NCBI GenBank assembly: GCA_964458285.1
Contig: CAYWID010000004.1
Coordinates: forward strand, 147,842 to 211,841
Reading direction: 5' to 3'
Source: an uncultured Subdoligranulum sp.
Lineage (GTDB): Bacteria > Bacillota > Clostridia > Oscillospirales > Ruminococcaceae
DNA: 64,000 nt
In this document: piece after piece, positions 15,431 to 43,278 of the stretch
Layout: each line of letters opens with the position of its first letter
Position numbering within the stretch: the first letter of the stretch is position 1
The notes under the pieces: generated by a model
What the model saw: the letters and a program-made list of their open reading frames with translations, nothing else
Databases searched by the model: none
What the model was told of the DNA's origin: nothing
Translations under genes and position numbers: made by a program

Positions 15431-16615
15431 ATGTCGAAAGGCCGTTTTGGCGTACATGGGGGCCAGTATATCCCCGAAACGCTGATGAATGCCATGCTGG
15501 AACTGGAAACAGCCTACAAAACCTATAAGGACGACCCGGCGTTTCAGGCCGAGCTGACCGCGCTGCTCAACGAGTACGCGGGCAGGCCCAGCCGCCTGTA
15601 TTACGCCGCGCGGATGACCGCCGATCTGGGCGGGGCCAAAATCTACCTCAAGCGGGAGGATCTGAACCACACGGGCGCCCACAAGATCAACAACGTGCTG
15701 GGCCAGATGCTGCTGGCCCGGCGGATGGGCAAGACCCGCGTGATTGCGGAAACGGGCGCCGGGCAGCACGGGGTGGCCACGGCCACCGTGGCCGCCATGA
15801 TGGGGATGGAATGCGAAATTTTTATGGGCCGCAAGGACTGCGAGCGCCAGGCCCTCAACGTTTACCGGATGCGGCTGCTGGGGGCCAGGGTTCACCCCGT
15901 GGATACCGGCACCGCCACCCTCAAGGACGCCGTCTCGGCCACCTTCCGGGAGTGGACGGCCCGCATCGACGATACCCACTATGTGCTGGGCAGCGTGATG
16001 GGGCCGTACCCCTTCCCGGAGATGGTGCGGGATTTTCAGGCCGTCATCGGGCGGGAGATCCGCGCCCAGCTGCAGGAAAAGGAGGGCCGCCTGCCGGACG
16101 CCGTGCTGGCCTGCGTGGGCGGCGGCTCCAACGCCATCGGCGCGTTCTACGATTTTATCCGGGAGCCCTCGGTGCGGCTGATCGGCTGCGAGGCCGCCGG
16201 GCGGGGCATCGATACCGCCGAGACGGCCGCCACCATCAGCACGGGGCGGCTGGGCATCTTCCACGGGATGAAATCCTACTTTTGCCAGGACGGCCAGGGG
16301 CAGATCGCGCCCGTCTACTCCATCTCGGCCGGGCTGGATTACCCGGGCGTCGGGCCTGAGCATGCCTGGCTGCACGATACCCGCCGCGCCGAGTATGTGG
16401 CCGTGACCGACGACGAGGCCGTGGATGCCTTTGAGTATCTTTCCCGCATCGAGGGCATCATCCCGGCCATCGAGAGCGCCCACGCGGTGGCCTACGCCAG
16501 AAAGCTGGCCCCCGCCATGGGCCGGGACAAAATTCTGGTCGTCAACATTTCGGGCCGGGGCGACAAGGACTGCGCCGCCATCGCCCGCTACCGGGGGGAG
16601 GAGCTTTATGAGTAA
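15431..16615 (+). CDS. trpB: tryptophan synthase beta chain
   Basis: [39 protein letters not shown]. Confidence 0.97.
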
Positions 16616-17387
16616 CATTGCCAAAGCCTTTGACCATGGCAAGGCGTTCATTCCGTTTGTGACCTGCGGCGACCCAGACCTTGCCACGACCGAGCTGCTG
16701 GTGCCCGCCATGGCCGACGCCGGGGCCGACCTGATCGAGCTGGGCATCCCTTTCTCCGACCCCACGGCCGAGGGGCCCGTCATCCAGGAGGCCGACAACC
16801 GCGCCCTGGCCGCCGGCGCCACCACCGACAAGATTTTTGCGATGGTGCGCCGCCTTCGCGGCGCCGTCGCGGTGCCGATGGTCTTTATGACCTACGCCAA
16901 CGTCGTGTTCTCCTACGGGTCGGAGCGGTTTATCCGCACCTGCGCCGAGATCGGCATCGACGGACTGATTCTGCCCGACATCCCGTTTGAGGAAAAGGGC
17001 GAGTTTGAGGATCTCTGCGAGCGGTACGGGGTCGATCTGATCTCGCTGATCGCCCCCACCAGCCACGAGCGGATCACGCGGATCGCCGCGGCGGCGCACG
17101 GCTTCGTCTACTGCGTTTCCTCGCTGGGGGTCACCGGCACCCGCGCCGAAATCACCACCGACGTGGGCGCCATGGTAAGGCTGGTCAAGGCCGCGCGGGA
17201 CATCCCGTGCGCGGTCGGATTCGGCATTTCCTCCCCGGCGCAGGCGGCGGCCATGGCCGCCGTGTCGGACGGGGCCATCGTGGGCTCGGCCATCGTCAAG
17301 CTCTGCGCCCGCTACGGGCGGGACTGCGTGGCCCCCGTGGCCGATTACGTCCGCCGGATGAAGCAGGCCGTGTCCGGCACCGCGTGA
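16608..17387 (+). CDS. trpA: tryptophan synthase alpha chain
   Basis: [34 protein letters not shown]. Confidence 0.97.
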
Positions 17388-17420
17388 GCCGCGGCGCCGG
17401 TTCCGCCGCGCAAAAAGCAG

Positions 17421-17459
17421 CGGCGGGCGCCCCCCGGAAAGGGCGCCCGCCGTTTTTTT
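17421..17459 (+). terminator. intrinsic terminator of the trp operon
   Basis: CGGCGGGCGCCC/GGGCGCCCGCCG 12-bp stem + T7. Confidence 0.85.
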
Positions 17460-17622: not shown

Positions 17623-18756
17623 TTACACGCCCATCAGGGTCAAAATCAGGCCGCCCGCAATCACCGAGGCAATCTGGCCCGAAACGTTGACGCTGATCGA
17701 ATACATCAGTAAAAAATTCTGGTTGTCCTCCTTGAGGCCCATCTGGTTGATGACGCGGCCGCTCATCGGAAAGGCCGAGATGCCCGCCGCGCCGATCATC
17801 GGGTTGAGCTTTTTGCCCGCGGGCAGGAACAGGTTGATCAGCTTGGCAAACAGCACGCCGCCCACGGTGTCAAACACAAAGGCGACCAGGCCCAGCGCCA
17901 GGATCAGCAGGGTATCGGGCCGCACAAACTTTTCGGCGGTCATCTGCCCGGCCACGGTCAGCCCCAGCACGATCGTGATCAGGTTGGCCAGCACGTTCTG
18001 GGCCGTCTCGGACAGAGCGTTCAGCACGCCGCACTCCCGCAGCAGGTTGCCGAACATCAAAAAGCCCACCAGCGCCACGCTGGCCGGGGCCACCAGCCCC
18101 GCAATGACCGTCACTGCGATCGGGAACAGGATGCGGGTGGTTTTGCTTACCCGGCCCTTTTGGTAGGGCATGCGGATGCTTCGCTCCTTCCGGGTCGTGA
18201 CCAGCCGGATCACCGGCGGCTGCACGATGGGCACCAGCGCCATATAGCTGTAGGCCGCCACCATGATCGCGCCCAGATAGCGGGATTTCAGCACGTTTGC
18301 CACAAAGATGGCGGTGGGGCCGTCCGCCGCGCCGATGATGGCGATGGAGGCCGCATCGTTGAGCGGGAAGAAAAAGCCCGCCACAAAAAAGGTGAAAAAG
18401 ATGCCGAACTGGGCCGCCGCGCCAAACAGCATCAGCCAGGGCTTTTCCAGCAGGGGGCCGAAATCGATCATGGCGCCGATGCCGATGAACAGCAGCAGGG
18501 GAAACAGCTCGTTCGACATGCCCGCGTCAAACAGCGCGGTGATGGGGCCCACCACATCGCCCTGCGTGATCGCGCCCGAGAGGGGCAGGTTGACCAAAAT
18601 CGCGCCAAAGCCCATGGGCAGCAGCAGGCTCGGCTCCATTTTTTTGGCGATGCCCAGATAAATCAGCAGGCCGCCGATGGCCCACATCACCGCCATCTGC
18701 CAGGTCAGGTTGCCAAAGTTGGCAAACAGGCTGGCGAAGGTTCCCAAAAAATCCAT
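17623..18756 (-). CDS. oadB: Na+-translocating decarboxylase beta subunit
   Basis: EPSLLLPMGFGAILVN, IIGAADGPTAIF, AYSYMALVP, IGAAGISAFPM; GAGGAGG RBS. Confidence 0.95.
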   Translation of the reverse strand: MDFLGTFASLFANFGNLTWQMAVMWAIGGLLIYLGIAKKMEPSLLLPMGFGAILVNLPLSGAITQGDVVGPITALFDAGMSNELFPLLLFIGIGAMIDFGPLLEKPWLMLFGAAAQFGIFFTFFVAGFFFPLNDAASIAIIGAADGPTAIFVANVLKSRYLGAIMVAAYSYMALVPIVQPPVIRLVTTRKERSIRMPYQKGRVSKTTRILFPIAVTVIAGLVAPASVALVGFLMFGNLLRECGVLNALSETAQNVLANLITIVLGLTVAGQMTAEKFVRPDTLLILALGLVAFVFDTVGGVLFAKLINLFLPAGKKLNPMIGAAGISAFPMSGRVINQMGLKEDNQNFLLMYSISVNVSGQIASVIAGGLILTLMGV

Positions 18757-18824
18757 ACGCAATCCTCCTCAACAAACTACCGTGCGGGGCAAAAGCGGGC
18801 GGGGGGCGGCCCCGGCGGGCCACC

Positions 18825-18871
18825 AAAAAAGAGACTTTTACCGCAGCAAACCATGCTGCGGTAAAAGTCTC
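18825..18871 (-). terminator. intrinsic terminator inside the oadB 5' leader
   Basis: 18-bp perfect stem GAGACTTTTACCGCAGCA/TGCTGCGGTAAAAGTCTC + T6 on the minus strand. Confidence 0.9.
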
Positions 18872-18960
18872 AGTGCAAAAGCGCGGTTCCGGGCTTTCGC
18901 CGTGATGACGAAGCCGCGCAGCGCGGCCGGGCCGCACCCCTTACTCCCTTTTATCCCATT
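18872..18960 (-). ncRNA. candidate riboswitch aptamer upstream of oadB (possibly Na+-sensing DUF1646-type)
   Basis: lies between promoter and leader terminator; nested stems GGUGC/GCACU, GCCGCG/CGCGGC, UUCGUC/GGCGAA; class not verified. Confidence 0.5.
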
Positions 18961-18967
18961 GCCTTTT

Positions 18968-18996
18968 AGTATAGCGGATGGCGGGGCGCTCTGCAA
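18968..18996 (-). promoter_or_regulatory. sigma-A promoter of the oadB leader
   Basis: minus strand TTGCAG-17-TATACT. Confidence 0.75.
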
Positions 18997-19051
18997 GTGC
19001 AAACAAAAATTTAGGGCAATGCCGCGCCTTTCCGGCCCGCCCCGGCCCGCC

Positions 19052-19100
19052 AAAAAACAAAACCGGGGCGGGCAGCCTGCGTTCAGTCTGCCCGCCCCGG
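19052..19100 (-). terminator. intrinsic terminator of ackA
   Basis: 13-bp stem CCGGGGCGGGCAG/CTGCCCGCCCCGG followed by T-runs on the minus strand. Confidence 0.75.
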
Positions 19101-19133
19101 CGCGGTTTTATGCGGGGAAAAAGCGCGCCGCGC

Positions 19134-20348
19134 TTACAGCCGCTCGCCCAGGGAATCCACGATGTTCCTGGTGTCCCGCGCAATCATCAGCTCCTCGTTG
19201 GTGCAGATGGCCAGCACCTTGACCCTGGCGTCGGGGCCGGTGATGTCGTTCACATCCAGGCCGCGGCGCAGGTTTTGCGCCTCGTCGATGGAAATGCCCA
19301 AAAAGTCCATGTCCTTGCAGACAGCCGCGCGGGTCTCCCAGCTGTTCTCGCCGATGCCGCCGCAGAACACCAGGCAGTCCAGCCCGCCCATGGCCGCCGC
19401 GTAGCCGCCGATGTATTTTTTGAGCTGGTAGGCCAGCATATCCAGCGCCAGGCGGGCGCGCTCGTCGCCCGCCTCGGCGGCGGCCGTCACGTCGCGGTTG
19501 TCGCTGGAAACGCCGGAAACGCCCAGCAGGCCGGACTTTTTGTTCATCACGTCGTCAAATTCAGCGGGGGTCATGCCGGCGGCGGCCTCAATGTAGCCGG
19601 GGATGGAGGGGTCCATGTCGCCGCTGCGGGTGCCCATGATCAGGCCGGAAAGCGGGGTCATGCCCATCGAGGTATCCAGCACCTTGCCGCCGTCCACCGC
19701 GGCCACCGAGGAGCCGTTGCCCAAATGGCAGGTCACGATCTTCAGCTCGCCGGGCTCGCGGCCCAGGTATTGCGCGGCCGCCAGGCTGACAAAGCGGTGG
19801 GAGGTGCCGTGGAAGCCGTAGCGGCGCACATGGTACTTCTCGTAATACTCGTAGGGCAGCGCGTACATATAGGCCTTGGGGGGCATGGTGGAATGGAAGG
19901 CGGTGTCAAACACGGCCACCATCGGCTTGTTTTCGCCAAAAACCTTTTTGGCGGCCTCCACGCCCAGCACGCAGGCGGGGTTGTGCAGCGGGGCCAGCGG
20001 GGCCAGCTCGTTCATCGTATCGATGACCGCGTCGGTGACAAGGCAGCTTTCCTTGAATTCCTCGCCGCCGTGAACCATCCGGTGGCCGATGGCGCCCACC
20101 TCGCCGATGTCGCCGATGACCTTGCCCTCGCCCTCGGTCATTTTTTTGACCAGCGCCTCAAACGCCTGGGTGTGGGTGGGGAAGGGCAGCATGGTTTTCC
20201 ACTTGCCGCCGTTGGCGCTGTGGGTGATGCTGCTGCCCGCCAGGCCGATGCGCTCGCACAGGCCCTTGCACAGGACATGCTCGTTTTCCATATCGATCAG
20301 CTGATATTTTAAGCTGGAAGAGCCACAGTTGATAACCAGAACTTTCAT
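19134..20348 (-). CDS. ackA: acetate kinase
   Basis: VINCGSSSLKY, GHRMVHGG, APLHNP, RRYGFHGTSH, CHLGNGSS, TNEELMIA. Confidence 0.97.
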   Translation of the reverse strand: MKVLVINCGSSSLKYQLIDMENEHVLCKGLCERIGLAGSSITHSANGGKWKTMLPFPTHTQAFEALVKKMTEGEGKVIGDIGEVGAIGHRMVHGGEEFKESCLVTDAVIDTMNELAPLAPLHNPACVLGVEAAKKVFGENKPMVAVFDTAFHSTMPPKAYMYALPYEYYEKYHVRRYGFHGTSHRFVSLAAAQYLGREPGELKIVTCHLGNGSSVAAVDGGKVLDTSMGMTPLSGLIMGTRSGDMDPSIPGYIEAAAGMTPAEFDDVMNKKSGLLGVSGVSSDNRDVTAAAEAGDERARLALDMLAYQLKKYIGGYAAAMGGLDCLVFCGGIGENSWETRAAVCKDMDFLGISIDEAQNLRRGLDVNDITGPDARVKVLAICTNEELMIARDTRNIVDSLGERL

Positions 20349-43194: not shown

Positions 43195-43278
43195 TGGTGC
43201 GGAAGATGGGACTTGAACCCACACGTCATGGACACACGCACCTCAAACGTGCCTGTCTGCCGATTCCAGCACTTCCGC
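43195..43278 (-). tRNA. tRNA-Leu(GAG), CCA encoded
   Basis: GCGGAAG/CTTCCGC acceptor stem, TT-GAG-GT anticodon loop, long variable arm, GGTTCAAGTCC T-arm. Confidence 0.97.

Follow-up and report, generated by a model that had tools for sequence, protein, structure and literature searches.

A probable three-way-junction member of the yybP-ykoY (Mn2+) riboswitch family upstream of an oadB-like gene in an uncultured Subdoligranulum sp.

Within the yybP-ykoY family of Mn2+ riboswitches, metal-stabilised docking of two helical legs is established, and the canonical members (RF00080; L. lactis yoaB, E. coli mntP, B. subtilis yybP) possess a four-way junction with a helix P4. The S. pneumoniae mgtA element (SN44) is a yybP-ykoY riboswitch that instead forms a three-way junction, with UNAAA standing in for P4 and a terminator immediately downstream (Martin et al. 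2019, PMC6649816). In that aptamer the 5' side of loop L1 is conserved, the 3' side of L1 is an invariable AGA after a variable base, and the C-A of L3 is invariant; G16, G17 and A18 are needed for metal-dependent folding, C49 and A50 are invariant and required, and read-through is activated by Mn2+ both in vitro and in vivo (PMC6649816). Here we evaluate against these systems a leader RNA that precedes an oadB-like gene in a 64,000-nucleotide (nt) stretch of DNA from an uncultured Subdoligranulum sp. (assembly GCA_964458285.1, contig CAYWID010000004.1, positions 147,842 to 211,841; this whole stretch is hereafter the window). Comparative evidence leads us to regard the oadB leader as a likely riboswitch of the yybP-ykoY (Mn2+) family that turns transcription ON and has the three-way junction without P4. 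An earlier note on this DNA had proposed a conditional cation-sensing riboswitch belonging to the Na+-sensing DUF1646 class, to a variant of it, or to a new class; a terminator-based cation-sensing type is supported by our comparisons, while neither the Na+ class nor a new class found support.

Comparing the leader with mgtA helix by helix, we found the same order, P1.1-L1-P1.2, P2, P3.1-L3-P3.2 and no P4, within a 90-nt structured RNA at 18952-18863, as delimited by a covariance model built for this purpose (R1, see below) and by covariation in 53 homologues (all leader coordinates are window positions on the minus strand). P1.1 pairs AAAAG (18952-18948) with CUUUU (18867-18863), the latter being the switching sequence that also lies within the terminator's 5' arm. 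On its 5' side, L1 reads GGAGUA (18947-18942), identical to the RF00080 consensus GGGGAGUAGC and, with its preceding G (GGGAGUA, 18948-18942), agreeing with the yybP-ykoY signature GGGGAGUAG and with the GGGAGUAG of mgtA, and the 3' side reads GAGA (18871-18868), which is the N-AGA of mgtA. P1.2 is formed by AGGG and CACU (18941-18938 / 18875-18872) with one G.A mismatch, or alternatively by GGUGC (18938-18934) and GCACU in a shifted register, such that its register in the oadB leader is uncertain. There follows the P2 hairpin (GUGCGG-CCCGG-CCGCGC, 18937-18921), at a place where all homologues carry a hairpin of variable length and sequence, and then P3 (18919-18881), which is composed of P3.1 (GCGCGGCUUCG / CGGAACCGCGC, i.e., GCGCGG..UUCG / CGGA..CCGCGC), the L3 bulge and P3.2 (GGC-GAAA-GCC). 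The L3 bulge UCAUCAC (18908-18902; in its context CGUCAUCAC, 18910-18902) contains the C-A which makes the metal contact in relatives of solved structure and aligns with the L3 of RF00080 (CGUCAACAUAC) and with CGUCA..AC of mgtA, so that the RF00080 consensus GGGGAGUAGC...CGUCAACAUAC corresponds to GGGAGUAAG...CGUCAUCAC in the oadB leader. Just 5 nt, the J3/1 linker UUUUG (18880-18876), separate P3.1 from P1.2, leaving neither a P4 nor a four-way junction. Apart from lacking P4, the leader differs from the canonical RNAs in an L3 that is 1-2 nt shorter and has no UGG to pair with UCA as in the Rfam consensus, and it differs from mgtA in a longer and G+C-rich P2 and P3, in a linker that is not UNAAA, and in preceding an OadB gene rather than a P-type ATPase gene.

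This structure was derived from homologues. OadB orthologues were present in 54 of 61 related genomes, and a recognisably homologous leader preceded 23 of the 30 best of them, with a common series of blocks: first AAAAGGGAGUA(A)G, then a hairpin that varies, CGUCA..ACGG-hairpin-CCCG, a short linker and N-AGA-CUUUU, and finally a terminator with AAAAGUCU as its 3' arm. Single-sequence minimum free energy (MFE) folding was dropped in favour of comparative data, as in G+C-rich members of the genus the MFE structure is not the conserved fold; RNAalifold on a MAFFT alignment gave P3 only, and P1.1 and P1.2 were placed manually before being tested. The resultant covariance model R1 was built from 17 oadB leaders only, with a hand-set structure from which P2 was left out since no common column register could be obtained for it, and it scores the oadB leader at 83.9 bits (E 5e-18), the leader itself being in the seed.

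Aligning 53 R1 matches to the model (alignment A5), we found that the four modelled helices (P1.1, P1.2, P3.1, P3.2) had 89.7% of their cells paired, compared with 32-52% when partners were slid, and that 21 of 23 pairs had changes on both sides, values that 0 of 500 shuffles reached, although fitting the alignment to the model inflates the pair counts and to that extent counts against our assignment. Despite this fitting, P1.2, P3.1 and P3.2 vary widely and in a consistent way. The outer two pairs of P1.2 form in all 53 sequences with 3-4 pair types, changes on both sides occur in 10 of 11 P3.1 pairs and in 3 of 3 P3.2 pairs, and P3.1 shows compensatory changes within the genus as well; for P1.1, 98% of cells are paired and 4 of 5 pairs have compensatory changes. 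Conserved in 100% of the aligned RNAs (53/53) are GGAGUA on the 5' side of L1, AGA on its 3' side (preceded by G or A), and the C..CA of L3 (alignment positions C64, C67 and A68). The oadB leader also folds better than its shuffles (z = -4.5, with 0 of 200 shuffles as good). Among the stems that the earlier note had drawn within the leader, GGUGC/GCACU matches or overlaps P1.2, whereas GCCGCG/CGCGGC and GGCUUCGUC/GGCGAAAGCC are without comparative support and give way to P2, P3.1 and P3.2.

Five oadB orthologues of the same genus (L021, L024, L028-L030; 72-74% identity) have no riboswitch, and four of these (L021, L024, L029, L030) share an unrelated, mutually conserved upstream region with TTGACA..CATAAT near the gene, which indicates loss or replacement of the riboswitch within the genus.

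The remaining parts of the leader are those expected of a transcriptional switch that ends in a terminator, and here the earlier note's account of a sigma-A promoter, a structured leader and a terminator was borne out in all but the stems just mentioned. The promoter, read from the sequence, has a -35 box TTGCAG (18996-18991) and a -10 box TATACT (18973-18968) at a spacing of 17 nt; a simple consensus scanner did not call it, but in leaders from 16 species of the genus the CTT of its -35 box and the TATA.T of its -10 box never vary. Transcription would accordingly be placed as starting near 18961. The intrinsic terminator (18871-18825) is, as the earlier note had it, a perfect 18-bp stem followed by six U, with arms at 18871-18854 and 18848-18831, a 5-nt loop UGGUU and U6 at 18830-18825; it follows straight after the aptamer and overlaps its 3' strand, as in the three-way-junction subclass. 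Its 5' arm GAGACUUUUACCGCAGCA includes the 3' side of L1 and the entire 3' strand of P1.1, the sequence common to terminator and aptamer being GAGACUUUU, and aptamer and terminator are therefore predicted to be mutually exclusive. In a nearest-neighbour model the terminator state (-61.2 kcal/mol) is about 34 kcal/mol more stable than the aptamer state (-27.3 kcal/mol), so that termination would be the default and read-through would need a ligand-stabilised aptamer. The terminator overlaps the aptamer likewise in relatives and in two further leaders of this genome described below (through GAGAC and P1.1).

Between the terminator and the ribosome-binding site (RBS) lies a G+C-rich spacer of 54 nt (18824-18771), much of it an insertion of about 35 nt (GGCCCGCCGGGGCCGCCCCCCGCCCGC..., 18785-18823) that is specific to this genome and absent from 15 leaders of the same genus. 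This insertion could fold into a small hairpin, GGCCC/GGGCC. The RBS GAGGAGG (18770-18764), read from the sequence, stands 7 nt ahead of the oadB ATG at 18756; the U-tract lies about 55 nt from the RBS and about 69 nt from the ATG, making the earlier figure of about 70 nt from terminator to RBS slightly off. A promoter scan of the spacer detected no promoter-like site, and the downstream promoter that the earlier note had named as an alternative source of oadB transcripts thus did not appear.

Putting these elements together by analogy with mgtA, we propose that the first 90 nt of the transcript would fold into P1.1-L1-P1.2, P2 and P3.1-L3-P3.2, and that a cation bound between L1 (GGAGUA/GAGA) and L3 (UCAUCAC) would dock the two legs and hold together the weak, A-U-rich P1.1. 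Held in this way, P1.1 would keep GAGACUUUU out of the 18-bp terminator, and RNA polymerase would read on into oadB and the small oadG-like gene that follows it; with the metal absent, the more stable terminator would form and transcription would stop at U6. The ON direction is thus inferred to be that of mgtA, and the docking that of the canonical family. Mn2+ is most likely the ligand, with Ca2+ less likely, judging from the S. pneumoniae relative and from copies of the same RNA type that precede mntP and a P-type ATPase gene in the same genome.

The class that the earlier note had favoured, the Na+-I riboswitches (DUF1646; RF03071), also consists of ON switches with terminators that occasionally stand before oxaloacetate decarboxylase genes (White et al. 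2022, PMC9337991), and the OadB encoded here keeps its Na+-binding residues, as a Na+-sensing switch might have it. Sequence and fold do not bear this out: a Na+-I riboswitch has two hairpins over 55 positions that are unrelated to the oadB leader, and a genuine RF03071 match from another family of the order, with the consensus GGUUGGGC...UUUCAAGA...GGGUGGGAAGCC, has nothing in common with it. We rejected the class on finding RF03071 (cut-off 40.5 bits) without a match on the leader (E<=10), in the whole genome (E<=1) or on 16 orthologous leaders, and on finding no counterpart in the leader for the base of the Na+-I P1 (GGUUGG..UUUCAAGA) or for its P2 loop (GGGUGGGA). The occurrence of the same RNA type before mntP and a P-type ATPase gene likewise speaks against Na+, and we consider a Na+-sensing member or variant of DUF1646 extremely improbable. 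Scanning more broadly with Rfam 15, we matched nothing in the window at gathering thresholds except one tRNA gene (43198-43278, minus strand, 46.2 bits), and at E<=10 the 451 nt around the leader (18700-19150) returned chance hairpin matches only (microRNA models, a wrong-strand c-myc internal ribosome entry site) and neither RF03071 nor a Li+ family.

Sub-threshold bridges to described RNAs came from two Rfam families. RF00080, which has a cut-off of 45 bits, also matches five loci found by R1, scoring 22-38 bits there, and RF02617 (SSRC10; cut-off 56 bits) is the best Rfam family both for two orthologous leaders (L022 and L023, 34.5 and 31.3 bits) and for the mntP and ATPase leaders of this genome, with scores of 27-34.5 bits overall and E-values of 1e-3 to 8e-3. 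SSRC10, whose consensus holds UgAAA, gAGAC and CGUCAAUACGG, was detected by Northern blot in S. pyogenes as an abundant RNA of about 113 nt that lies directly upstream of a gene for a 'putative calcium transporter', in the same orientation (PMC3675131), and its gene context and consensus suggest that it is probably the terminated form of the SN44/mgtA riboswitch. Rfam types RF02617 as a Streptococcus small RNA, and this typing, together with the abundance of the Northern-detected RNA, would favour an account in which the terminated transcript of about 130 nt at oadB acts in trans, or in which termination is controlled by a protein, such that the leader is not, or not only, a riboswitch in cis. 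We hold this to be very unlikely, since the RNA always lies directly upstream of a cation-transport gene and on the same strand with a terminator overlapping the aptamer, since its homologue is a demonstrated riboswitch in cis (PMC6649816), and since terminated leaders accumulate for any riboswitch that is OFF by default.

Evaluating where else this RNA type occurs, we found with R1, trained on oadB leaders, two further copies in the same genome. One (C1:311415-311517, 46 bits) precedes mntP (C1:311600-312160; Pfam Mntp 2.3e-45), and the other (C1:312209-312301, 69 bits) precedes a gene for an 886-aa P-type II ATPase (C1:312388-315048). These two riboswitches stand in tandem (C1:311415-315048; L042, L043), each with its own terminator, and RF00080 recognises neither. 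Beyond this genome, R1 had matches in 92 of 300 Clostridia genomes, and the downstream gene was examined for 69 matches, with the proviso that the way the model was constructed biases its top-scoring matches to oadB. OadB of one riboswitch-linked clade followed in 26 cases (and an OadB fragment in one more), a P-type II ATPase in 20, a cation exchanger of the CaCA (Na_Ca_ex) family in 13, MntP in 4, GDT1/UPF0016 in 2, and CNNM/CorC, Band_7 and a DUF368-like protein in one case each. The genes other than oadB are those classically associated with Mn2+ riboswitches, and MntP, P-type ATPase and GDT1/UPF0016 are shared with the canonical yybP-ykoY RNAs, so that the association with divalent-cation efflux genes holds for the RNA type, in this genome and across Clostridia, with oadB itself being no known member of that set. 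At none of the CaCA loci in the sample did oadB follow within about 400 nt.

At one locus (L079, G172:C7:49429-51019) the riboswitch is followed only by the OadB fragment (residues ~160-232), probably a pseudogene, and on the same contig, about 7 kb away, an intact oadB stands behind another riboswitch (L058). At a pair of loci elsewhere (L089 and L090, G144:C14:37354-40123) two riboswitches about 1.2 kb apart on one strand each precede a gene that clusters with Pfam-confirmed CaCA (Na_Ca_ex), an arrangement that reads as a tandem duplication of riboswitch and exchanger.

The same census bears on the identity of the metal. As 33 of the 69 downstream genes encode P-type II ATPases or members of the CaCA Na+/Ca2+-exchanger family and a further 26 encode OadB, the ligand of this fold in Clostridia might instead be Ca2+, or Ca2+ and Mn2+ together, serving a Ca2+/Na+ circuit in which Ca2+-ATPases and Na+/Ca2+ exchangers act alongside a Na+ pump that rebuilds the Na+ gradient. 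Consistent with this, the in vitro affinity of the S. pneumoniae aptamer is higher for Ca2+ than for Mn2+ (PMC6649816). Against it, only Mn2+ activated the reporters in vivo, in S. pneumoniae as well as in B. subtilis (PMC6649816), MntP and GDT1 genes, including the mntP of this genome, stand under the same RNA type, and the Mn2+-sensing structures contact the metal through the same nucleotides. We therefore take a Ca2+ or mixed ligand to be unlikely, if still the likeliest departure from an Mn2+ switch as far as the RNA is concerned.

Several observations weigh against assigning the oadB leader to the Mn2+ family. RF00080 has no match on the leader at E<=10 nor in its genome, and at threshold it matches in 0 of 301 Clostridia genomes; RF02617 likewise has no match on the oadB leader itself at E<=10, and membership rests on the purpose-built R1 and on the sub-threshold bridges. 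The Ca2+ affinity of the S. pneumoniae aptamer and the many associated genes of Ca2+/Na+ type make Mn2+ no more than the probable physiological ligand, and to our knowledge OadB is no known Mn2+ homeostasis gene. The leader also departs from its relatives in its linker, the J3/1 columns holding A-A in 47-48 of the 53 homologues, most of which read UAAA, with the oadB leader an exception, and in the mismatched or shifted P1.2; and for the aptamer alone the MFE structure (-40.4 kcal/mol) is not the family fold (-27.3 kcal/mol). These last departures, along with the 35-nt insertion after the terminator, could be taken to mean that the oadB copy is a decaying, non-functional relic and that oadB is constitutively terminated or read from elsewhere. 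Such decay appears highly unlikely to us because the copy retains intact all nucleotides that are 100% conserved, the promoter, and the perfect 18-bp terminator with its complementarity to the switching sequence; P3.1 moreover shows compensatory changes within the genus, and nothing promoter-like was found downstream. A three-way-junction yybP-ykoY riboswitch thus remains the probable identity of the oadB leader.

The gene under this riboswitch is less readily placed. The first gene (18756-17623, minus strand) encodes a 377-aa protein whose identity as OadB, as the earlier note had read it, is secure: it matches Pfam OAD_beta (PF03977; 4.8e-144, 480 bits) and TIGR01109 (402 bits, cut-off 190.6), and aligns over nearly its full length with Salmonella OadB (PDB 6IVA; E 1.3e-91). 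Mapping onto it the Salmonella residues of Xu et al. 2020 (PMC7274780), we found E40, D203, S382, N412, S419, Y229, N373 and G377 kept, and the Na+-site residues D203, S382 and N412 conserved in all 20 members of the riboswitch-linked clade. In contrast, all 20 clade members have another residue in place of R304 (A in the window OadB, S in the 19 others), 17 of 20 carry K instead of N311 (kept as N in the window OadB), and T148 is I in all 20. R304 and N311 are residues of the cytoplasmic cavity important for decarboxylation (PMC7274780), and a second OadB of the same genome (C11:13746-14930), 48% identical, keeps all the mapped residues including these two. With riboswitch-linked OadBs of other Clostridia families the window OadB shares 58-74% identity, mostly >=65% (65-74% in all but one), and this conservation points to a distinct orthologue group.

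The second gene, a 42-aa open reading frame (17609-17481, minus strand) with one hydrophobic stretch, is read as a truncated OadG. Its profile matches fall below cut-off (NF040909 'OadG-related small transporter subunit', E = 0.017; the start of OAD_gamma, PF04277, E = 0.38), so that hidden Markov models lend weak support to the name oadG that the earlier note had given it, but a homologous small frame follows OadB in at least 10 of 21 other loci and in other families. The pair is an orphan, as had been noted, in having neither an alpha subunit nor a biotin carrier next to it, and no full-length gamma subunit is encoded with it either.

The other parts of a Na+-translocating decarboxylase are scattered over the genome, with a 141-aa OadG bearing an Ala/Pro-rich linker and the second OadB at C11:13301-14930, and with the only carboxyltransferase and biotin carrier of the genome at C7:152440-154094. 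The C-terminal part of OadG binds the alpha subunit, and the partner of the riboswitch-linked OadB has 42 aa, unlike the 141 aa of the canonical OadG on C11. Among the 26 genomes with a riboswitch-linked OadB, 24 encode a strong biotinyl-domain protein, a bona fide biotin carrier, and the other two are only ~91% complete. The window OadB could be an alternative partner of the C7 enzyme, or could work alone. Our best guess is that the OadB/OadG-like pair takes part in a response to divalent-metal excess, serving either as an alternative beta subunit for Na+ pumping or as an independent transporter.

A more specific possibility, which we put forward only tentatively and think doubtful, is that OadB of this clade and its 42-aa partner form no decarboxylase subunit but a stand-alone Na+-coupled Mn2+/Ca2+ efflux transporter or a module that extrudes Na+ under metal stress. 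We raise it because the clade is highly conserved between families yet only 48% identical to the second OadB, with the Na+ site kept and R304 (and mostly N311) lost, and because the partner is far shorter than the other OadG while the other well-represented targets of the riboswitch are all cation exporters. Weighing against a stand-alone transporter are the retained E40 and the biotin carrier in 24 of the 26 genomes.

As for the surroundings of the locus, ackA lies upstream of the leader and ends at 19134, with its own terminator at ~19100-19050. On the other side, a two-way terminator (17419-17454, both strands), made of a 14-bp G+C-rich stem with T-runs on either side, separates oadB-oadG from a convergent trp operon on the plus strand (trpB at 15431-16615, the end of trpA at 17387).

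The RNA class and its three-way-junction form have already been published, and the oadB leader is a new member that public models overlook. Within the partial coverage of our literature search, we found no work linking yybP-ykoY to a gene of the oxaloacetate-decarboxylase type, the two terms co-occurring there only in the paper on the Na+ riboswitch. With RF00080 reaching its threshold in 0 of 301 and R1 matching in 92 of 300 Clostridia genomes, a layer of metal regulation in gut Clostridia appears to be unannotated. The other well-represented genes under this riboswitch all export divalent cations, and a lone OadB with a truncated OadG is its most frequent partner in our oadB-biased sample, which points to an unrecognised link between Mn2+ (or Ca2+) stress and Na+ pumping, or to a new transport function of the clade. 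Were the stand-alone transporter to prove true, this OadB clade, the most frequent target among the 69 genes, would be a previously unrecognised part of the Mn2+ homeostasis machinery.

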